From an uncultured delta proteobacterium (GTDB taxonomy: Bacteria; Myxococcota; Myxococcia; Myxococcales; Myxococcaceae), in the NCBI GenBank assembly GCA_963771175.1, contig CAVYSY010000032.1, forward strand, positions 448,001-512,000: DNA of 64,000 nucleotides, given 5' to 3'. This document shows positions 43,778-56,370 of the stretch, one piece after another; positions within the stretch are counted from its first letter, which is position 1, and each line of letters begins with the position of its first letter. The notes under the pieces are model-generated. The model saw nothing but the letters and a program-made list of their open reading frames with translations, did not search any database and was not told where the DNA came from. The translations under genes and the position numbers were made by a program.

Positions 43778-46366
43778 CTACGTGCTGGCCGAGGCGTTGG
43801 CGAGCGGCAGGACGGGCACCGTGAAGAAGAACGTGGTGCCCTGGCCGGGCTCGCTCTCGACCCAGATCCGGCCCCCGTGGGCCTCGACGATGCCCTTGGC
43901 GATGGCCAGCCCGAGCCCCCGCCCCCGCCGGTCCGCGGAGTCCGCCTGCCAGAACCGATCGAAGATGTGCTGCCGTTGCACCTCGGGGATCCCCGCGCCG
44001 GTGTTCATGACGGAGAAGACCACCTCGTCACCCTGTACGGTGGCGCATAGGGACAGACGTCCGCCAACGGGGGTGAACTTCAACGCGTTTCCCAGGAGGT
44101 TGGCGAACACCTGGAGGATGCGGTCGCGATCCGCGAAGATCAGCGGCAGGCCGGGGCTCACCCTCTCCTCCAGCAGGAGCTGCCTGTCTTCCGCCTGCAA
44201 CTGCACCGACTCGACGGCCTCGTGGACGATCGACGCGGGCTCGACCGCACTGCGCTGAAAAGAGAGCCGCCCCTCTTCGATGCTCACGATGTCGAGCAGA
44301 TCCTCGATGAGCTTCCGCATGGTGCGGCTGGAGCGCAGGATGCGCTCAACGGAGGCGTGGAGCCACTCGCAGCCGCCCTCCTCCCCCACGCGCTGGGAGA
44401 TCTTCCGCACGGCGAGCTCGATTGCCTGTAGCGGGCTCCTCAAGTCATGGGAGACCACGCCGAGCATCTCATCCCGCGCCCGCACGGCGCGACGCAGCGC
44501 CTCCTCGACCTCCTTCAGAGCCGTGATGTCCTCGTTGACGACGACCGCCCCGGCGAACTTCCCGCGCTCGTCGTACAGCGGCATCGCCGAGTTGATGATC
44601 GTCTTGTACGTGCCGTCGAAGCACTGGATGCGGATCAGCTCTCCGAGAGAGGTCTCCCCTTTCTTCAGTGCGCGCGCCAGCGACCACTCCTCCGGGGAGA
44701 TCGGCTTGCCAGTGTCCACCCACCACCCCTTGTACACGCCAAGCTCGGGCCCGCCGACATAGTGGGCGCCGCCCCAGACGCGCAGCCCGGCGGGGTTCGT
44801 GCGGATGAGGCGCCCGGTATGGTCCGCGATCCACACCCCCACGGGGAGGAGCTCGAAGATGCCGTTCAAGAGGCGTTCATTCGCACGGATCGCCTCCTCG
44901 ACCTGCATCCGTTCGCTCACATCCTGGAACACGCCGACGCCGCCAATGATCTTCCCTTCGGCATCGCGGATGGGCGCGGCGCTCCCGAGGATCGGGATTC
45001 GCGAGCCAGGCGAGCGCTCGATGATGTACTCGACACCGACGACCGTCTCACCACTCCGAAGGACCCGGTTCGAGGCAAACTGCTCCAACGGAACGGGCGT
45101 CCCGTCGCGAAAGAAGACGCGGTCCCGGTACTGCTCAGTGCCTCCCGTGGGCGAGAACGTCGGGCCGAGGAGCTCTTCAGCCCGCTGATTGCAGGAGATC
45201 CCGCCATCGGGACTGAAGAGGAGCACTCCCACCGGAACGGTGTCGAGCACCGCCCTGAGCCAGCGCCGCTCCTCTTCGATCTCACCCATGAGGCGCTCGC
45301 GTTCTTCTTGAGCGCGCGTGCGCGCTGACACATCCCGGACAAACGCGAGCCAACGCTTGTCGGGCAGCATCCGCGCACTCACCTCGATGATCGCCGGAGT
45401 ACCGTCCCCGCGTCGAATCTTCCAGTCACTGACGTCCGAGGTCCCGGCGAGGAGCTTCTCCCGGACCGCGGACAAGCGCGCCAGCTCCTCTGGCACGACG
45501 AGGTCCGCGACGGTCATCGAAAGCATCTCCTCTTGCGTCCGACCGAGCATCTCGCGAAGCCTCGGGTTGACCGCGGTGTAGCGTCCCTCCGAGTTCGCGA
45601 TCGCAATGCCGTCGGACGCCTCCTCGAAGATGGCCCGGAGGCCTTCCTCACTCTGGCGAATCGACGCCTCCAGGCGCTTCTGGTGGGTAGTGTCGCGCAG
45701 TGCGATGACGAGCATCGTCTCCCCGTCGATCGGCGTCTCGGCCATCATCGCTTCTGCGGGAAATTCCTCGCCGGTCTTCCGCTGGAGGACGATCTCCCGG
45801 TGCATGGCCGTCCTCTCCTCCATCCCGTGTGTGGCCGCGAAGGAGGGCATCTGAGCGCGATGAGCGGCGCGAAGGCGCTCGGGGAGGAGCACCTCGAACG
45901 AGCCTCCGATGACCTCCCCGGCACTCCAGCCGAAGACACGCTCGGCGGCCAGGTTGAAGGCCCTGATGTGCTGTCCGGCATCAACCGTGATGAGGGCGGA
46001 AGGCGCATTCATGAAGAGCGTCTCCATGCTGGCCGCATGGGCGCGCAACCGTTCCTCCTCCTGCTTCCGGTCGGTGATGTCGAGTCCGACGGCGAGCGTC
46101 TCCTCGACCTGGCCCGCCGGGCTCACGCGCGGCGTCGTGGCCCAGGCGACCCATCGCACGGTCCCCTCGCGCGTCGGGAGCGGCCCCTCGAACCGACGAG
46201 GAGCGGACGATGGGATTCCCTCGAACCCTGGAAGGCTCCCTCGCCCACGGACCTCGGCGAGCGTCCAGCCCGTGGCCTCCTCGCAAGCACGGCTCCAGGA
46301 GAGGAGCCGTCCGGAGGGATCGAGGCTTAGAACGAGGACGCCATGGACCGCTTGAGGATCGAGCAT
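43778..46366 (-). CDS. Multi-PAS histidine kinase
   Basis: About five PAS/PAC units, VSHDLRSPL, NLLGNALKFT, GRGLGLAI. Confidence 0.9.
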   Translation of the reverse strand: MLDPQAVHGVLVLSLDPSGRLLSWSRACEEATGWTLAEVRGRGSLPGFEGIPSSAPRRFEGPLPTREGTVRWVAWATTPRVSPAGQVEETLAVGLDITDRKQEEERLRAHAASMETLFMNAPSALITVDAGQHIRAFNLAAERVFGWSAGEVIGGSFEVLLPERLRAAHRAQMPSFAATHGMEERTAMHREIVLQRKTGEEFPAEAMMAETPIDGETMLVIALRDTTHQKRLEASIRQSEEGLRAIFEEASDGIAIANSEGRYTAVNPRLREMLGRTQEEMLSMTVADLVVPEELARLSAVREKLLAGTSDVSDWKIRRGDGTPAIIEVSARMLPDKRWLAFVRDVSARTRAQEERERLMGEIEEERRWLRAVLDTVPVGVLLFSPDGGISCNQRAEELLGPTFSPTGGTEQYRDRVFFRDGTPVPLEQFASNRVLRSGETVVGVEYIIERSPGSRIPILGSAAPIRDAEGKIIGGVGVFQDVSERMQVEEAIRANERLLNGIFELLPVGVWIADHTGRLIRTNPAGLRVWGGAHYVGGPELGVYKGWWVDTGKPISPEEWSLARALKKGETSLGELIRIQCFDGTYKTIINSAMPLYDERGKFAGAVVVNEDITALKEVEEALRRAVRARDEMLGVVSHDLRSPLQAIELAVRKISQRVGEEGGCEWLHASVERILRSSRTMRKLIEDLLDIVSIEEGRLSFQRSAVEPASIVHEAVESVQLQAEDRQLLLEERVSPGLPLIFADRDRILQVFANLLGNALKFTPVGGRLSLCATVQGDEVVFSVMNTGAGIPEVQRQHIFDRFWQADSADRRGRGLGLAIAKGIVEAHGGRIWVESEPGQGTTFFFTVPVLPLANASAST

Positions 46367-46571
46367 GCCCCTCCAACACTGGCACCCAGCGCGGCCAAGT
46401 GCAGGCGGTTCCAGCCCCTCCCGCCGATCCGACAGGGGTTGGATGCGCTCGCGCACGGGACACAGCTCCTGGTGCTCGGCCCGTGGATTGTGCACCAGAT
46501 TCGGCTGGAGAGGAAGCATCCCAGCCGGTTTCCCCACGGGCAGGAGGGCTAGCGGGCGGGTACGCCGCGGC

Positions 46572-47825
46572 TCAGAGCGCCTCGCAGTAGCCGTAGTTGC
46601 AGGCGGGCGTGGACGACGGACAGTCCGCCGGCCCATTGCACGGCTTGCACGAGGAGGCCCCGTTGGCCACCAGGTCGAAGTAGCAGCCGCAGCGCGAATC
46701 GGTGGAGTACGAGCTCAGCGACCCCATCTCCGACGTGCGCTTCACCTTCATGGCGCACTTGGGCACCAGGTGCTTCTGGATGATGACGTCCAGCAGCTCC
46801 TTCTCCAGGCGGGCCGCGGCGAAGCGGCTCACGAGCACGGCGGCGGCCGGGCTGGGCAGGCCATTCTCGGTGCGCGTGTAGAAGTGCACCGGGCCCCAGA
46901 TGGGGTAGTGCCCATCCCGCACGTTCTGCTTGTCCTTGGCGAAGGGCGTGGAGTCCGGCAGGAATCCGCAGGACTGGCCGGAGGCCTGGAACGCCAGGAT
47001 GCGCAGGTTGCTGCGCTCCTCGTCCGCGATGTCCGTGGAGATGATGCCAATGGCCTTCTCGGCCGTGCTCGCGTCCAGGAGGACCTTCATGTTGCGGCGC
47101 ACGCCGTCACTGCCGCCCCGGTCCACCCCCCACCACTTGTCGGCGGGCACGCCGATGGCCCGGGCCAGCATCTGCTGCGTGCCGGAGCTGGCGTTGCGGA
47201 CGAAGTACAGGTTCGGGTCCGTCCATGGGGCGGCCGCCCCCTTGTTGCCCCCGGTGCCGAACACCATGTACGCCGCCTCGGCGCTGATGCTGCGCTGAGA
47301 GGAGGCCGCCGGCACCACGAAGGTCATCGGCTGGATGGGGCCCTCGTAGTCGGCGATCTGCACGTTCGCGGGTGCCGTCATGTCGCACGTGGAGGCGTAA
47401 ACGTCCGAGACGCCCACATCCACCACGTTGCCCTCCGGTGCCAGGAAGCACTCCTGCGCCGAGCCGTCCGCGTTGAAGAGGATGGCGTAGTTGGCCGCCT
47501 TGGAGCCGCTGGCGGGAATGTCCTTGATGATCTGCTGGCTCGGGTCCGTGCTGTAGATGGCCTTCACGCCCGTGCACGAGCCCTGCGACTGGTAGACGAT
47601 TCTCCAGGCGGGCGACTCCTTGGCGAGCAATGACGCCACCACCCCGAGGAACGGACGGATGGCGGAGGAGCCCGCCACGTAGATGGTGTTGGGGCCGGCG
47701 CAGTTGACGGTGGGCGTGTTGGTCTGCGCATGCGCCACGGTGCTCACGAGGGCCAGGGCGAGCAGGCCGGTCCAGAGCCCCGGCGCGAGCCGGCGAAGGT
47801 CGTATCTCATGCTGCGGATCTCCAT
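46572..47825 (-). CDS. Secreted PstS-like phosphate-binding protein with Cys-rich C-terminus
   Basis: Signal VAHA; AGSSA, YQSQGSCTG, GVSD, RNASSGT, GHYPIW match the PstS/PBP-like pattern. Confidence 0.7.
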   Translation of the reverse strand: MEIRSMRYDLRRLAPGLWTGLLALALVSTVAHAQTNTPTVNCAGPNTIYVAGSSAIRPFLGVVASLLAKESPAWRIVYQSQGSCTGVKAIYSTDPSQQIIKDIPASGSKAANYAILFNADGSAQECFLAPEGNVVDVGVSDVYASTCDMTAPANVQIADYEGPIQPMTFVVPAASSQRSISAEAAYMVFGTGGNKGAAAPWTDPNLYFVRNASSGTQQMLARAIGVPADKWWGVDRGGSDGVRRNMKVLLDASTAEKAIGIISTDIADEERSNLRILAFQASGQSCGFLPDSTPFAKDKQNVRDGHYPIWGPVHFYTRTENGLPSPAAAVLVSRFAAARLEKELLDVIIQKHLVPKCAMKVKRTSEMGSLSSYSTDSRCGCYFDLVANGASSCKPCNGPADCPSSTPACNYGYCEAL

Positions 47826-47827
47826 GG

Positions 47828-48181
47828 TCAGGGCTTGGGAACGAGCGGAGGCAGGCTGGCGCCGTTACAGAGCCCCAGCCGCGCGCAGTTGTCGAACGGG
47901 ATGCACTGCGCCAGGGTGCACTGGTTGCGGTACTGCTCCTCGGAGGAGGGCTCTCCTCGGAAGCAGCCCGGCGGGCCCAGCCCGGAAGGCACGCAGAGGC
48001 CTTCCTTGCAGACGGGATAGGAGCCGAACCGGACGCAGTCGTCGTCCGTGGCGCACTGGTCGGCGTTGCCGTCGATGACGAGCGAGCAACCCGTGCCCGC
48101 CAGCAGCAATACCGCCAGCAAGGCCCACCCCGGCCAACGGCCATGGGAAGAGCACCTGTCAGATTGAGGGTACATGCACAT
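47828..48181 (-). CDS. Small Cys-rich lipoprotein
   Basis: Lipobox GTGC; CATDDDC...C..GLC myxobacterial Cys motif. Confidence 0.7.
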   Translation of the reverse strand: MCMYPQSDRCSSHGRWPGWALLAVLLLAGTGCSLVIDGNADQCATDDDCVRFGSYPVCKEGLCVPSGLGPPGCFRGEPSSEEQYRNQCTLAQCIPFDNCARLGLCNGASLPPLVPKP

Positions 48182-48229
48182 GCCTCGTGAAATGGAGGGA
48201 AGCCAGCGGCCCGGAAGCGGGCCGCGGCG

Positions 48230-49224
48230 CTAGAAGGACCCCGAGACCCCCACGCTGCCCGGCCCCACCCCCACCTGCACTCCGGCGGAAGGAGTGGGCT
48301 CCGGCTCACGCAGGAGCGTCATCCAGGTGGACACCCCGACGGCCACCAGCGTGGCGCCCGCGAGCACGTCCGTGGTGAGCGCCAGGGTGCGCGTCCGGCC
48401 GCTGGCCTGGTCGAGCTCGGCCCGGCTCACCCCGAAGGTGTCGCGCCGGGTCTTCAGGTCACTCGAGGCATTCAGCGCCAGCACGGAGGAGACACCCGTG
48501 GCCACCGCCAGCCCCCCGGTGATGCCCCACGGCACCCAGGGAGAGACAGGCTGGGACTTGACGACCTCGGGCCGCGGAGCCTCGGGCGCGGGGCCTCGGG
48601 CCGCGAAGCCGGCGCGGGCGCGGCGGAAGCAACCGGCGCGGGCGCCGAGGGAGCGGCGAACTCCAGGGACACGTCGAGGGTGTCCCGGCCCGCCACGTCC
48701 ACCACGCGCGTCACCGGCGGGGTGCCCTGGAGCGAGGCGGAGATCTTCCGCCGCCCCGCGTTGAGCAGCAGCGGCTCGCGCAGCGGCGAGGTGCCCACCG
48801 GCACGTCATCCACGGAGATCTCCGCCCCCGGCTTGTTGACGGTGACGCGCACCGTGGCCACACGCACCTGGAGCCGGTCGATCTCCCGCTGGACCTCCTC
48901 GCGGCGCTGGGCCGGCAGCTCCCCTCCCCCTTCGTCGAGGTAGCGCTGGAAGCTGTCGAGCGCGCTGGCGTAGTCCTGGAGCTGATACTGCACCTGGGCG
49001 ATGTTGTAGAGGAGCCGGTAGCTCGGCGCGAGCTCGTAGGCGCGCTTGAACTCCACCAGCGCGGCCGGGAAGTCGTTCTCCTCGTAGAGCTCCCGCCCGC
49101 GCTGGTAGCGGTTCTGGGCTTCCTCGAGAGTGGCCTTCTTGGTGCGCCCCGCGGCACCGGCACTCCCGCCCGACAGCGCCAGCACGAGGGCGAGCGCGAT
49201 GGACCTGGACAGACGCATCATCAT
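48230..49224 (-). CDS. TPR-PEGA domain protein (apparent frameshift near 48600)
   Basis: Signal peptide, [37 protein letters not shown]-terminal VGVSGSF. Confidence 0.85.
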
Positions 49225-51112
49225 TCCTTCCATGGGTTGGTCGAATCCAGCTTGCGGTTGCTGCCGTTCCACGGGTCCTCACCATCGAGGCCACGCTTGG
49301 TGTCACCGCTCCAGGGGTTGTCCGCGTCGAGGCCGCGCTTCGCCTTGCTGGCGCCAGCGGCCGGCTTCGACGGCAGCTCGGCGAATCCGTCGTCGGCCGG
49401 CGCCACGGCCGGCTGCGGCGGGGCGGGAGCCCGGACCTTGGAGACACGCTCGCGGCGCACCACCAGGCTGCGCCGCTGCAGGTTGAGCTTCCAGCATCAG
49501 GTCCTTCTCGAAGCGGATCTGCTTCACCAGCGGCGCGAAGCCGGCGGCGGTGGCGCGCAACTCGTGCGAGGCGCCGTCCTTGGGGAAGCTGCCCGTGAAG
49601 GGATTGGACGGCAGCACCTCCCCGTCCAGCTGCACCACGGCGCCGCGCGGCACCACCTGGATGTGAAGCTCGACCACCTCCGAAGACGGCTCCTCCGCGT
49701 GCGCGGGGCGGCTCGACCGTCTCGGGACCGGGCGAGGCCACGGCCTGGGGCAGCGCGGCCGGGACCTCGGACGGTGGAGTGGGCAACGGAGTGGGGGGAG
49801 CGGGCGCGGGGGCCGGTGCGCTGGCCACCGGTGCGCTGGCCACCACGGCGGGTTGCACCTGGGGCTGGGGCTCGCGAGACCGGGAGCTGAACACCAGGGC
49901 CACGCCCCCGACCACCAGCAGCAGGGCCGCGCCCACGATGGGCAACACCCAGCGACGCCGGGGGGCGGCCCGCACCTCGGAGACGACATGCGCCTCGGTG
50001 AGGGACTCCGATTCGATCACCTGGGAGCGCGGCGCGGACAGGGTGGCCTCGGGAGGAGGAGGCGGCGGCCTCACCGGCGTCGCGGGCACGACGACACCGG
50101 GAAGGCTCCGGCGCGGCTTGCTGCCACTGCCGGGAGCCGGCGTGCCGAGCGGCCCCGAGCCACCGGACGGCAGCGAGAGCTGCGAGATGAGCTCCGCGAG
50201 CTGGAAGGCGCTCACCGGCTGGCCTTGCCCGAGCAGGAACTGCTCCAGGTCCGCCTGCATCTCCCGGCAGCTCTGGTAACGCTCCTCGCGGTCCTTGGCC
50301 AGCGCCCGCTCGATGATGCGCTGCAGGTCCTCGGGCACGTCGGCACGCCTGACGGATACGGGCGTGAAGGGCGAGTGGAGGATCGCGTTCATCAACGCGA
50401 TCTCGCTGCTGGCCTCGAAGGGCTTACGCCCCGCCACCAGTTCGTACAGCACGACCCCGAGCGCGTAGATGTCACTGCGCAGGTCGAGCGACTCGTTCCT
50501 GAGCTGCTCGGGCGCCATGTAGGGCACCTTCCCCTTGAGCGTGCCAACCTGGGTCTGGTGCACCTGATTGCTCGCCTTGGCGATGCCGAAGTCCACGACC
50601 TTCACGGACCCCGTTCGCGCCAGGAGGATGTTGTCGGGGCTGACGTCCCGGTGCACCAGGCCCAGCGGCTCACCGGTGTCGGGGTCGGCGAACTCGTGCG
50701 CGTAGGCGAGCCCCTCGCAGATGGCGGAGACGAGCTTCGCGCAGTGGGGCAGTGGCAGCGGCCGGCCCACCGCATGGGCCCTGCGCATCAGCGCGCGGAG
50801 GTTGGGGCCATCGATGTACTCCATGGCCAGGAAGTACACGCCGTCCGCCTCGCCGAAATCGAAGATCTGGACGATGTTGGGATGGTTGAGCTGGGCGGCG
50901 AGTCTGGCCTCGGACAGGAACATCTCGACGAACTGGGGCTCGTCGACCAGATGCGGGAGGATCTGCTTCACCACCAGGGTCTTCTCGAACCCCATGGGCC
51001 CCGCCACACGCGCCCGGTAGACCTTGGCCATACCGCCATGCCCAAGCTCTCCAAGCAGCTCGTACCGGCCCATCCGCGGGCTGTTCGGAACACTGTCTCG
51101 GGCGTCCAGCAC
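49221..51112 (-). CDS. Membrane Ser/Thr protein kinase with PEGA-like domain (apparent frameshifts near 49715 and 49480)
   Basis: [32 protein letters not shown] helix; extracytoplasmic tail ending in three (N/D)PW repeats. Confidence 0.88.
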
Positions 51113-51218
51113 CTGTTACCTCGGCGTCAAAATTAGCGTGCGGATAGCCTCTTTCTGGCACGCTGTCGAGATACCCAAGATACAAGACTTTGACTCCACG
51201 CGAGCAGTGGTGAAGTCA

Positions 51219-51285
51219 TGTCACGATCTTGTCACATATTCGGTGATAGGGATTTGTTCGCGATGAAGTGTCACGGTTTTGTCAC
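51219..51285. promoter_or_regulatory. Two Pho-box-like / OmpR-family direct repeats TGTCAC-N5-TGTCAC
   Basis: TGTCACgatctTGTCAC at 51219-51235 and TGTCACggtttTGTCAC at 51269-51285; 11-bp period. Confidence 0.6.
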
Positions 51286-51289
51286 GCCA

Positions 51290-51373
51290 AAGTTCGAGCT
51301 CATCGAGGCGGAGAAGACCCATTTCCCCGTGGACATCATGTGCCAGCAATTGGGCGTGTCGCGCTCGGGCTAA
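51290..51373 (+). mobile_element. IS3-family transposase OrfB N-terminal remnant
   Basis: KFELIEAEKTHFPVDIMCQQLGVSRSG*, resembling the IS3 FI.AEK..FPV...C..LGVSRSGYY motif. Confidence 0.75.
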
Positions 51374-51379
51374 TTTCGC

Positions 51380-51664
51380 CGACTCCTGGCAGGCGCTCAG
51401 TATCACCTCTATCGGAGCGACAGAGGTGCGGCCCTGGCCACGCTAGATGCACAGCTTGCGCGGCAACCCCAGAGCGTTGGGGCCCTCGCCTTCAAGGCGG
51501 AAATGATGGAAGACGCCGGCGAGTTGCTCCAGGCCTAGAAGCTTTACAATGCAGCGCTCGAGGCTCATTTCACGAAACGGCCCAACGCCCAGCATCCTCC
51601 CTTGGGGCTGATGGAGCGACGGGCCGCGCTCAGCAAGAAACTGTTCCCGGAAACGTTCAAGTAA
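51380..51664 (+). pseudogene. TPR-like gene 3' remnant with internal stop
   Basis: ...AALATLDAQLARQPQSVGALAFKAEMMEDAGELLQA*KLYNAALEAHFTKRPNAQHPPLGL...; TAG at 51536. Confidence 0.5.
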
Positions 51665-51806: not shown

Positions 51807-52238
51807 ATGCGTGGGACGTTCGGACTCCTGATTCTGGTGACGCTGGCTGGCTGCACCTCGGTGGACGTGGCCCGGGTGCCGTCGCTCCGCGACACGCGTG
51901 ACGTCTTCGTCACAACGGGGGACGTGAAGGGTCCCTACCAGAGCCTCGGTGTGGTGCAGGCCACGCGGCGCGGCGTGCTTCTCTTCGGCTTCGCGGACCC
52001 CGCGGGCACGGACCTGGAGGACGGGCTGCACGAGACGCTCATCCCCGAGGTGCGGCGCCTGGGCGGCGACGGCATCATGAACCTGCGCTTCCAGCAGACA
52101 CAGTACACCGTCCCCACCCGCCTCCTCTTCACCCTGCTCTTCTTCATCCCGCTGCCGAGCGAGGTCACCCTCAGCGGCGAGGTGGTGAAGCTCGGCCCGG
52201 GTGCCGCGCCGCCGTCGGCCGGTACCCCGTCGCGTTGA
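51807..52238 (+). CDS. Lipoprotein, YbjQ/heavy-metal-binding-like fold (paralog 1)
   Basis: Lipobox LAGC; PYQSLGVVQ...RRLGGDGIMNLRF...SGEVVK. Confidence 0.75.
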   Translation: MRGTFGLLILVTLAGCTSVDVARVPSLRDTRDVFVTTGDVKGPYQSLGVVQATRRGVLLFGFADPAGTDLEDGLHETLIPEVRRLGGDGIMNLRFQQTQYTVPTRLLFTLLFFIPLPSEVTLSGEVVKLGPGAAPPSAGTPSR

Positions 52239-52263
52239 ACCCGTTCCGCTCCTGGAGAACCCG

Positions 52264-52710
52264 GTGAGACTCCCGATCCTGCTCCCGTTGCTGCTGTGCG
52301 TCGGCTGCAGTGCCGTGTCGCGCGGCTCGAAGCTGTCGGACCGTCCGCCCGATGGCGAGCGCGGCCTGTACCTGAGCACCGGCGGCGCGCCGAGGCCCTA
52401 CCGCACCCTCGGGTTTACCCAGGTGCTGGGCTACGGCGTGACCGTGGCGGGCGTCTCGGACCTGGGCAACGCCGCCCTCGACAACACCATCAAGAAGACC
52501 CTGGTGGACACGGCCCTGAGGATGGGCGGCGATGGCGTCATCAACATCGAGTTCGAGGACGAGAACCCGCCCACCGACGTGGAGCGCGCGGCGGACCTCT
52601 CCGAGTCCATCACCAACGTGGCGAGCGGTCGCGGTGGCGGCGTGAAGACCCGCAACCGCAATGTGATCGTCACCGGCGAAGTCATCCAGTTCATCTCCTC
52701 CCAACCGTGA
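52264..52710 (+). CDS. Lipoprotein, YbjQ-like fold (paralog 2)
   Basis: Lipobox CVGC; PYRTLG...ALRMGGDGVINIEF...TGEVIQF. Confidence 0.72.
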   Translation: MRLPILLPLLLCVGCSAVSRGSKLSDRPPDGERGLYLSTGGAPRPYRTLGFTQVLGYGVTVAGVSDLGNAALDNTIKKTLVDTALRMGGDGVINIEFEDENPPTDVERAADLSESITNVASGRGGGVKTRNRNVIVTGEVIQFISSQP

Positions 52711-52721
52711 GAGCTCCTCCC

Positions 52722-53159
52722 ATGCGTCTCCTCCTCGCGCTCGCGCTCGTGGCGCTCACCGGCTGCACCGTCATCAACACCACCTCCGTCCCGTCCGACC
52801 GCAGCGGCAGGGACGTCTTCGTGTCGGCGGGCGACATCCCCGAGCCCTATGAGACGCTCGGCGTGGTCCAGGCCACGCGCTCGGGCGTGCTGCTCTTCGG
52901 CTTCGTGGACGTGATTGGCACGGACCTCGACGCCGGCTTCAAGGACGTGCTCATCCCCCAGGTGCGGGAGATGGGCGGCGATGGCGCCATCAACGTCCGC
53001 TTCCGCCAGACGCAGTACCTGCCGGTGACGAAGGTGTTCGGCGCCATCTTCTTCTTCATCCCGCTGCCCAGCAGCGTGACGGTGACGGCCGAGGTGGTGA
53101 AGCTCCAACGCCGCGCGGACCTGCCCGCCGAGAGCTCGGCGCCCGTCGTCTCCCGCTGA
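52722..53159 (+). CDS. Lipoprotein, YbjQ-like fold (paralog 3)
   Basis: Lipobox LTGC; PYETLGVVQATR...REMGGDGAINVRF; very similar to paralog 1. Confidence 0.75.
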   Translation: MRLLLALALVALTGCTVINTTSVPSDRSGRDVFVSAGDIPEPYETLGVVQATRSGVLLFGFVDVIGTDLDAGFKDVLIPQVREMGGDGAINVRFRQTQYLPVTKVFGAIFFFIPLPSSVTVTAEVVKLQRRADLPAESSAPVVSR

Positions 53160-54749: not shown

Positions 54750-55556
54750 CTAATGCCGCCCCAATTCCCTGTCCCAGGCAGCCAACTGCACGGCCACCGT
54801 GTATTTCTCGGCGCTGGAGAGGTCGTCGAAGTCCTTCGGGGGAAGCGCGGAAAGGCGCTCGCGCAGGAAGTCCGGGTCGCTGAGCACCTCATGGTGCTTC
54901 AAGTCGTTGTCCCCCTCCACCAGGACAGGCATCAACCGGAGCACGGCCTCCTCGCACTCCTCGCGGGTGGCGCGAGCCATGCGCTCCACCGCCAGGGCCA
55001 TATGCTCGCGGACCAAGGCCGGGCCTCCGGGGCACCAGGCATCCAGGGTCTTGCGGTAGATGTCCGCTATGAGCTCGTCCAGCGTGTACTTCTGATCGAA
55101 CGACCAGAACGCATAGCGAGGGCCCTGGAGCACGTCCCAGAAGCGGAGCAGCGAGGCGAGCCGGTTCGCCATGCGTTCCGCGCTCCGCGGGGGGAGCGGA
55201 GACACGGTATAGTAGAGGGCCCCCCACGGGGTGCTCAGGCAGAAGGACTCAAAGGCCGCTTCAGTGCGTTGACGCTCCTCCTCCGGGACGCCTTCATTCA
55301 AGCCCATGAAGACGCTGGTGAACTTGTACATCCGCCAGCGCGGGCGGGGGGTTGGGTCGAAGTCGGCCCCCGAGTGCATCAACAGGACCTCGCCGGGCGG
55401 CACCTGGCGCATCTGCCGGGGCTGGGGAAAGGCACCGGTCTTGAGGTACTCCCGGGCCCACCAGCGGCCCTCGGCTATCAACTTGCGGAGGATGGCGGCG
55501 TTGGTGCTGTAGAGCATCGCTGGAAACTCGAGCACCGGGGAGTGTTCCGTGTTCAT
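54750..55556 (-). CDS. Hypothetical protein, candidate immunity partner
   Basis: 268-aa ORF downstream of the nuclease-like gene; no motif recognised. Confidence 0.6.
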   Translation of the reverse strand: MNTEHSPVLEFPAMLYSTNAAILRKLIAEGRWWAREYLKTGAFPQPRQMRQVPPGEVLLMHSGADFDPTPRPRWRMYKFTSVFMGLNEGVPEEERQRTEAAFESFCLSTPWGALYYTVSPLPPRSAERMANRLASLLRFWDVLQGPRYAFWSFDQKYTLDELIADIYRKTLDAWCPGGPALVREHMALAVERMARATREECEEAVLRLMPVLVEGDNDLKHHEVLSDPDFLRERLSALPPKDFDDLSSAEKYTVAVQLAAWDRELGRH

Positions 55557-55643
55557 GGCTTTTCGCCCTACCACAGAGGTCAGATGCTCCTCAAGCGACA
55601 GGCACTTCGCTCACTCCGAGGGCGGCGGATGCCTCCTGCCCGC

Positions 55644-56370
55644 TCAGCGGCAGTCCACAGGCAGGTAGACTTGGCCCTGGAAGCCCTTGGGGCTTTCGCC
55701 CCCTTCATAGGCAGCCCGGATCGCCTGCGCGGCCAACTCACCGCGCTGCTCTATTTCTTCCCCGGGCAACTTCTCTTCCTTCTGGGCCGCCCGCTCCTTC
55801 CAGGAAGCATGGGGCTGCTTGCGCCGGTAGCTCCAGCGATACAGTGTCACTCCGGGCTCTGGCGTGCGCCAGGACAACTGCCAGAGTGCTCCCCCGTTCT
55901 CGAATTCGAGGAAGAGCGACCCCTCGAAGCCGGTGCCTCCCATGAGCTTATTGTCAGGCTCGACGGCCTCATTCAGTGCCGCCAGGTAGCGCCCCGCCTG
56001 TTCTCTCCCTTCCACGCGCGACTGCTCATTGTCCGGCTTGAGCTCGAACAGCACGAAGAGACGGGTATCGGTGATGTCCGGGCGCAAGCGCCTCACGAAC
56101 TCTGAAAGACGCTCGGGGTCCCCCAACTTCCCCTCCTTTACAATGTCGTAGAGGTTGACGGTGTCGAGGAAGACGCGGTTGGTGGGATGCTGCACGCTGT
56201 ACGCTCTGCCAATGGCGTAATGTGCGGCCTTGCCAAGAAAAGCGCCCCAGGGCTCCCTGGAGTCCGGCTGACGGCCAGGGAGCTTGTAGGAGGGCGGCTC
56301 CGCCTGGGCGCCGAGGGCCGCCACGAGCACCAGGAGAAAACCCGCCAGCCCCAAGGTGCTCCTGCTTCAT
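55644..56370 (-). CDS. Exported protein with PD-(D/E)xK restriction-endonuclease-like motifs
   Basis: GKAAH...RLRPDITD...LFELKP...QAGRYL; start is either TTG 56354 or ATG 56370 with a 1-nt indel giving signal MKRSTLGLAGFLLVLVAALGAQA. Confidence 0.55.

Follow-up and report, generated by a model that had tools for sequence, protein, structure and literature searches.

A candidate phosphate receptor encoded with a Hanks-type kinase and its adaptor in Myxococcota

We analyzed a stretch of 64,000 nucleotides (hereafter, the window) that forms part of contig C32 (CAVYSY010000032.1) in the genome assembly of an uncultured member of the Myxococcaceae (GCA_963771175.1; 9.8 Mb, 69% GC, 82% complete); the closest named homologues of the window genes belong to Archangium. 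Four minus-strand genes encode, in order and in the same direction, a Hanks-type Ser/Thr kinase, an adaptor with TPR and PEGA domains, a Cys-rich lipoprotein, and a binding protein of predicted PstS fold. From sequence comparisons and structural models we propose, with about even confidence, that the binding protein acts as a phosphate receptor, occupying the slot that varies among kinase-adaptor envelope relays, and would feed the membrane Ser/Thr kinase. The PstS-fold protein is likely to bind inorganic phosphate outside the inner membrane; lipoprotein and TPR/PEGA adaptor would then relay the signal to the kinase. The lipoprotein would tether the binding protein to the outer membrane, and the adaptor would be anchored in a membrane through its C-terminal hairpins. 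Phosphate-driven closure of the binding protein may change the clustering of adaptor and kinase and so alter kinase autophosphorylation, and a PhoB-type regulator would tune the operon via repeats that lie upstream of it.

The case for a PstS fold is strong, judged on the predicted structure of the binding protein. The model, built with 117 sequences, has a predicted local distance difference test score (pLDDT) of 91.6, and its best structural match by Foldseek and VIA is PstS 4lat (Z 24.2, root-mean-square deviation 2.9, 253 aligned residues). The top 38 of the best 50 structure matches listed are phosphate-binding proteins, and lower Z scores go to DING proteins (16.2–16.9), ModA (14.2), and a sulfate-binding protein (13.7). 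Identity to solved PstS proteins is 15–20%; a single-sequence search of the PDB with the binding protein found nothing, and a profile search found just weak PstS hits (E 0.0035), along with SH2-domain hits over 36 residues only that we took as chance. The sequence contains the motifs GSS (residues 52–54), GSCTG (82–86), SD (140–141), and RNASSGT (210–216), and the ligand residues are nearly constant among 116 homologues: S53 is kept in 113, R210 in 115, and S83, S140, D141, G215, and T216 in all 116. A profile comparison with the genome's own PstS, weak in itself (probability 2.75), brings three of the motifs into register, and we infer the place of the SD motif in the phosphate site. In Escherichia coli PstS an Asp selects protonated phosphate, and we take Asp141, from its position, to be that residue. 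An invariant Cys stands beside the Ser83 ligand, an insertion lies around residues 95–135, and the Cys-rich tail spans residues 379–415.

The family comprises 1117 proteins among 7999 scored and falls into at least 557 clusters at 50% identity (E 1e-30 or better), whose members are now annotated as hypothetical or as ATP-binding cassette (ABC) substrate-binding proteins; the nearest Atlas clusters are unnamed and mostly from Myxococcota. It is unevenly distributed (found in 11 of 60 relatives, in 3 of the 17 genomes of the genus, and in 22 of 300 in a phylum sample), and cultured representatives of Archangium, Pyxidicoccus, Hyalangium, Polyangium, and Sorangium carry the cassette. A quick-mode tree of 137 rows places the true PstS rows on a very long branch amid those of TonB type; several further TonB-type rows (e.g., L018–L020, L139, L143, L149, L150) had been removed by a filter on length and motifs, one outgroup row was wrongly picked, and the order of events cannot be drawn from this tree.

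Genomic context ties the binding protein to the kinase. Of 549 genome matches, context was counted in the best 80, which favour the window's branch and include near-duplicates. Genes in these loci were called with a codon-score caller of our own that overlooks genes of low GC; linkage was counted by six-frame profile searches instead of gene calls, in loci with enough flank. In each of the 76 loci so counted, the lipoprotein is just upstream of the binding protein or shares its frame, 41 of them with a single reading frame, so by sequence the two are fused in about half of the loci, and it is on this fusion that a link between them would rest. Of 68 loci, 61 have the adaptor immediately upstream; of 61 loci, 41 have both kinase and adaptor upstream and 56 have a kinase of some kind no farther than 5.5 kb away, across Myxococcota. 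Gene order and translational coupling are preserved across loci of the Myxococcaceae, Polyangiaceae, and Kofleriaceae. At other loci the binding protein is joined directly to a kinase (L203–L206, L214, L218, L227), and in a further layout a phosphate-selective porin (Porin_O_P) stands next to the binding protein, followed by the kinase.

No dedicated ABC permease accompanies the cassette. Within the window we found no match to PstC, PstA, PstB, PhoU, or PstS, and in the wider surveys pstCAB genes lie near the family at 1 of 100 loci from genomes and 4 of 80 from metagenomes, and every one of these loci encodes a PstS of its own. A complete pstSCAB-phoU operon is encoded elsewhere in the same genome, which has two canonical PstS genes, one of them inside a phoBR-porin-pstSCAB-phoU region, and also encodes a phosphate porin. 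Elsewhere in the family, pstSCAB-phoU genes stand beside members at L102, L149, and L150, and phosphate neighbours recur on separate branches; going by their predicted functions, the family's neighbours point to phosphate.

Much of this had been put forward in an original prediction made from the window's sequence. The junctions it described are in the sequence: the kinase runs from a GTG start at 51112 to 49221 and overlaps the adaptor start (49224) in an ATGA, the adaptor and lipoprotein are 48 nucleotides apart (48230 to 48181), and the lipoprotein and binding protein are 2 apart (47828 to 47825). The PstS-type motifs, the Cys-rich tail, and the lack of an adjacent PstCAB-type permease or ATPase were likewise borne out; the structural comparison that it called for put PstS above DING, and the synteny with a kinase that it needed was found in other genomes. 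Its genes, motifs, and repeats are thus real, and it did not mention the frameshifts, the strand of the repeats, or the pstSCAB-phoU operon elsewhere in the genome. Its interpretation stood with respect to the fold, the kinase synteny, the missing dedicated permease, and the co-occurrence of repeats and cassette, and missed the frequent fusion and a kinase-free porin/TonB context described below.

The cassette kinases keep their catalytic motifs and their tail: HRD and DFG motifs are present in 45 of 45, and 42 of 45 end in the tail motif R-x-[IL]-D-x-x-[ND]-P-[YW]. In intact relatives they have the makeup of receptor-type Hanks kinases, with an HRD/DFG domain, one membrane segment (the single hydrophobic segment in the relative inspected), and an extracytoplasmic part whose PEGA-like domain shares one frame with the kinase domain. 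About 100 Ser/Thr kinase genes are encoded in this genome, and 3 of the 101 counted have a similar tail ending. Two of those three adjoin TPR or PEGA envelope proteins, and one such neighbour is a TPR protein fused to a TonB-dependent receptor. Because a kinase with a similar tail adjoins this fusion, an outer-membrane anchor for the adaptor is tentatively favoured by analogy. At L229:1164-6585 (G000 C11), a kinase with PEGA and a DPY ending is followed by a fusion of TPR and TonB-dependent receptor and then by a lipoprotein.

The model of the adaptor from an intact relative consists of TPR, PEGA, a linker, a helical hairpin, and a terminal beta-hairpin; its C-terminal anchor (hydropathy 1.75) matched no named family. 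When adaptor residues 28–200 were modelled with the kinase tail, the prediction scored 0.59 and the best control 0.01, and the runs agreed in at least 58% of contacts, with a partner pLDDT of about 50. The docking mark is reached by 116 of 157 solved pairs and 2 of 215 mismatched pairs, but only 18 of the 157 solved pairs, and both of those mismatched pairs, reached it at 0.60 or under. These models lend weak support to docking of the kinase tail on the adaptor. Sequence identities across 44 triplets are correlated between kinase and adaptor (Spearman 0.57) and between adaptor and binding protein (0.40). Other adaptors in the genome have different extracellular partners in the same slot, including one with an amino-acid-binding-protein fold. 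At L106:1990-4182 (G000 C31), an adaptor-like TPR protein with the same kind of C-terminus precedes a Peripla_BP_6 protein, and no transporter was seen alongside.

Upstream of the kinase, the two direct repeats TGTCAC-N5-TGTCAC named in the original prediction lie 107–173 nucleotides from its start and are the sole exact copies in the 9.8-Mb genome (expected 0.14); none of 100 shuffles of the window gave two copies. Repeat pairs with an 11-bp period occur upstream of 15 of 60 cassettes and in 6 of 398 control regions, and under a second definition (half-sites 11 or 22 bp apart) the counts are 19 of 60 and 7 of 395, a contrast that is overstated because the upstream regions are related. This co-occurrence extends to other genera, as had been anticipated. 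In 17 of the 18 genomes of the genus a triple box, GTCAC-N6-GTCAC-N6-GTCAT, stands before phoBR; it has the same core as the cassette repeats (phoB and phoR of this genome are named as best hits, below cut-off); ppk2 also has a box, in the orientation of the cassette repeats. Repeat orientation is mixed among relatives. The site in this genome where relatives carry the cassette has no box, so the repeats travel with the cassette. Genome-wide spacing counts gave no excess at period 11 and are dominated by codon periodicity; a sigma-70-type promoter was looked for and none was found.

The Pho box is defined by 11-nucleotide direct repeat units, two or more of them (PMC4415409). The cassette repeats have two or more such units, and are best called putative OmpR/PhoB-type sites, with PhoB their likeliest binder. 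The label Pho-box-like stands as regards the 11-nucleotide units and the core of the phoBR box; the motif also occurs at many genes unrelated to phosphate, and here it lies on the strand opposite the operon. We rejected assignment of the repeats to a divergent DUF885 gene, which is seen in three relatives, because the DUF885 gene of this genome lies elsewhere without boxes and the repeats occur in genera lacking a DUF885 neighbour. An insertion-sequence end was also rejected, because relatives without the short remnant at the cassette edge (Table 1) have the repeats. Two further triple boxes of 11-bp period were noted at L107 (G000 C51:48600-48700) and G000 C31:45546-45690, one before an unnamed 377-residue protein, the other separating a TetR-like gene from the gene divergent to it.

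Several observations count against a phosphate-reading relay. The 80 loci are best scorers only and are not independent. The binding protein scores below cut-off with both PF12849 (PBP_like_2; 22.4, cut-off 27) and TIGR02136 (41.2, cut-off 206.6; 248.3 for the genome's own PstS), and therefore is not PstS by family rules. Most loci, and most kinase-type loci among them, have none of the phosphate neighbours queried; the PhoB-like regulators found at 6 loci (24 regulators tested) are all at non-kinase loci, and the neighbours PhoX, GDPD, and a metallophosphoesterase are confined to one genus, Polyangium. As for the repeats, both read TGTCAC on the plus strand, opposite the operon genes; 41 to 45 of the 60 cassette upstream regions lack them; the phoBR box is found as a pair in just 1 of 12 genomes outside the genus; phoX of this genome has no clear box; and most of the 61 genome hits of the phoBR-box matrix, among which the repeats rank 5th and 25th, fall at phosphate-unrelated genes. 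Neither the kinase nor the TPR/PEGA gene is a single open reading frame in this assembly, so that this copy is frameshifted as assembled. The identities of kinase and binding protein are hardly correlated (Spearman 0.11, 44 triplets). Finally, distant members have a second layout without a kinase, in which the binding protein and small lipoprotein are followed by a porin, a lipoprotein, ExbB, ExbD, TonB, and a TonB-dependent receptor.

The last two points would also suit a scavenger, in which the binding protein and lipoprotein capture phosphate at the envelope and pass it to the porin and PstSCAB encoded elsewhere (or are secreted, as DING is), the kinase and adaptor being co-transcribed for assembly or regulation and reading no ligand. 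Operons for a porin, ExbB, ExbD, TonB, and a receptor begin with this protein pair immediately after pstSCAB-phoU (L149, L150) or near phoB-like genes, and this genome has the pstSCAB genes and phosphate porin that such a route would use. We nevertheless consider scavenging unlikely: the four-gene order and its translational coupling are kept in three families, the binding protein is elsewhere joined directly to a kinase, and related adaptors in the genome occur with other extracellular partners in the equivalent position. The porin/TonB-type operon itself (L018:9335-18001, L019, L020, L139, L143, L145, L149, L150, L152, L155) has a further lipoprotein after the receptor and is often beside phoB or pstSCAB; from its gene content it is a candidate for energised outer-membrane uptake of a phosphate compound.

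The same relay could instead read another ligand, such as an organophosphate, a phosphonate, a polyphosphate end, arsenate, or another oxyanion. The low identity to solved PstS proteins, the invariant Cys by Ser83, and the insertion at residues 95–135 would fit a different ligand; distant members adjoin ars genes (L151, L158, L217), and L140 lies near a gene set that, read by eye, resembles a sulfate ABC transporter. In 13 of 90 loci, mostly of one branch (L060, L066, L068, L070, L071, L073, L076, L082, L087, L089, L094, L095, L101), the next gene after the binding protein belongs to the phosphoenolpyruvate (PEP)-mutase/isocitrate-lyase family; the enzyme has a PKRCGH loop, scores below all NCBIfam cut-offs, and may be an output of the cassette within that branch. 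Moreover, ligand residues are altered in one sub-branch (L012, L021, L022, L141), where GDT, SA, and KST replace GSS, SD, and SGT. Because of these changes and of the neighbouring regulator with HTH_3 and PBP_like domains at L021 and L022, the sequences suggest that this sub-branch may read another anion. For the window's branch we give a different ligand a low probability: all four PstS-type motifs, the Asp included, are near-invariant there, and neither a phosphonate- nor a phosphite-binding protein appears in the best 50 structure matches listed, though one may stand lower in the ranking.

The frame breaks bear on this copy. By alignment, two 1-base insertions at about 49705 and 49489 break the kinase, which spans three frames, and one break at about 48585-48600 leaves the TPR/PEGA gene in two; in three relatives of the genus each is a single open reading frame (kinase 596–615 residues, adaptor 331–335). 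In contigs about 98% identical, the 49489 insertion is absent in 3 of 4 runs and the 49705 insertion in 2 of 4, and the adaptor break is in frame in 2 of 4. Because close strains are in frame, the breaks are quite probably assembly errors; of 24 distinct non-cassette genes tested in this assembly, 4 also run through several frames, among them that for ATP synthase subunit a, so indel errors are common in it. The cassette sits at a different genomic place than in the three relatives, and the site where they carry it is empty here. That this is a decaying, recently moved copy, its kinase and adaptor pseudogenes and its binding protein left without a relay, would agree with three breaks within about 2.9 kb, the changed position with an insertion-sequence-like remnant at the edge, the patchy spread, and a truncated remnant in genome G313, and is quite improbable given the intact close strains and the frequent indels elsewhere in the assembly; it would in any case touch this copy and not the family. 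In G313 just the last third of the binding-protein gene is left (L148:7622-7939), a sign of cassette loss.

The proposed phosphate relay resembles several known systems. TagQ/TagR-PpkA of Pseudomonas aeruginosa uses a lipoprotein and a periplasmic partner to feed a membrane Hanks kinase (PMC13713981), and RtkS-PpkA of Serratia marcescens gives envelope input into such a kinase (PMC6082577). The cassette too would feed a Hanks kinase from the envelope; it differs in its input, a solute-binding fold, and in its TPR/PEGA adaptor. No type VI secretion (T6SS), Fha, or TagST genes are among the recurring neighbour clusters (no FHA model was run on the loci), and the RtkS-PpkA structure 9k1u was only a weak hit (E 1.4e-3). 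In Mycobacterium tuberculosis, the genes for the phosphate-binding protein PstS2 and the membrane Ser/Thr kinase PknD form one predicted operon (PMC3322341). The cassette shares this pairing of binding-protein gene and membrane kinase gene in one operon, and it alone has an adaptor and a partner lipoprotein. PknD carries a beta-propeller sensor of its own, and PstS2 is among the canonical proteins of the pst locus.

Transporter-type binding proteins have been reused as receptors in HptA-HptS, LuxP-LuxQ, and TorT-TorS, where they contact the sensor domain of a kinase that signals by a His-Asp relay; the cassette has instead a Hanks kinase, a peptide tail, and an adaptor. We presume that 6lkg, at row 42 among the best 50 structure matches listed, belongs with binding-protein-dependent histidine kinases. 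With PstS of PstSCAB (4lat, 4ecf, 4gd5, 4omb) the binding protein shares its predicted fold and the four phosphate-ligand motifs; it differs in scoring below the family cut-offs, in its 13 Cys, insertion, and Cys-rich tail, in lacking a dedicated permease and ATPase, and in being paired or fused with a lipoprotein, the canonical PstS being encoded separately. DING proteins (PfluDING, the human phosphate-binding protein) have a PstS fold and disulfides and are not known to be tied to ABC transporters; the DINGGG signature is absent from the N-terminus of the binding protein, which is structurally closer to PstS. The cassette thus resembles TagQ/TagR-PpkA, RtkS-PpkA, and pstS2-pknD, yet belongs to none of them. 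A literature search, outside which most subscription papers and supplements lay, found no description of it, and it is not described in the accessible parts of PMC7159879, PMC8538405, and PMC2996285; it is apparently a real, conserved, and undescribed variant.

The features of the cassette are collected in Table 1. The short remnant at its edge, which appears to resemble the start of an IS3-family transposase, lies at a position where a close strain has 527 extra letters. Directly downstream of the binding protein, a multi-PAS histidine kinase (43778-46400, minus strand) is not a neighbour in the relatives examined. Upstream, three small tandem genes for lipoprotein-like proteins of about 143–151 residues (51807-53159, plus strand) have no Pfam match, the first resembling the third. 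Farther on is a two-gene pair (54750-56354, minus strand) whose first protein recurs at several genome positions, with similar starts on C40, C54, and C34; by eye only, it looks like a repeated pair of nuclease-like and immunity-like genes.

Table 1. Features of the cassette and its upstream edge, in window positions.
Feature	Position	Strand	Remarks
Distal direct repeat of 11-bp period, Pho-box-like, OmpR/PhoB type (putative)	51269..51285	+	Opposite operon strand; rank 5/61 genome hits, phoBR-box matrix
Proximal direct repeat of 11-bp period, further half-sites alongside	51219..51235	+	Rank 25/61 hits, phoBR-box matrix
Short remnant at cassette edge	51290..51395	+	Translation only; no Pfam hit; single genome copy
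Hanks-type Ser/Thr kinase, first frame: kinase domain, one membrane segment, Pro-rich linker	49706..51112	-	Pfam Pkinase 145 bits
Kinase, second frame: periplasmic PEGA-like domain	49490..49705	-	Pfam PEGA E 0.002, 18.4 bits, below cut-off of 20.8
Kinase, third frame: linker and C-terminal tail, three copies of R-x-[IL]-D-x-x-[ND]-P-[YW]	49221..49489	-	
Adaptor: signal peptide, TPR, PEGA, linker, two Gly/Ala-rich helices, terminal beta-hairpin ending in Phe	48230..49224	-	Pfam TPR_16, PEGA
Small Cys-rich lipoprotein, lipobox AGTGC-S	47828..48181	-	No family above cut-off
PstS-fold binding protein, 417 residues: signal peptide, 13 Cys, Cys-rich tail; intact	46572..47825	-	

A wider reading, possible and offered tentatively, is that the cassette represents a second phosphate sense in myxobacteria: a disulfide-rich PstS-fold receptor that came out of a Pho-linked TonB uptake operon, was tethered to the outer membrane, and signals through a TPR adaptor gripping the kinase tail, independently of PstSCAB-PhoU-PhoR. 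To our knowledge, the signals of myxobacterial Ser/Thr kinases are mostly unknown, and here the putative input protein of a kinase module has a recognisable phosphate pocket, so that the input is directly testable. If the proposal is true, it would add a transporter-independent, Ser/Thr-based phosphate sensor beside PhoR and PstSCAB-PhoU, the first of the many modules of kinase, adaptor, and lipoprotein in myxobacteria whose ligand could be predicted, and it would name a family of at least 557 clusters (50% identity) that is now annotated as hypothetical or ABC substrate-binding protein.

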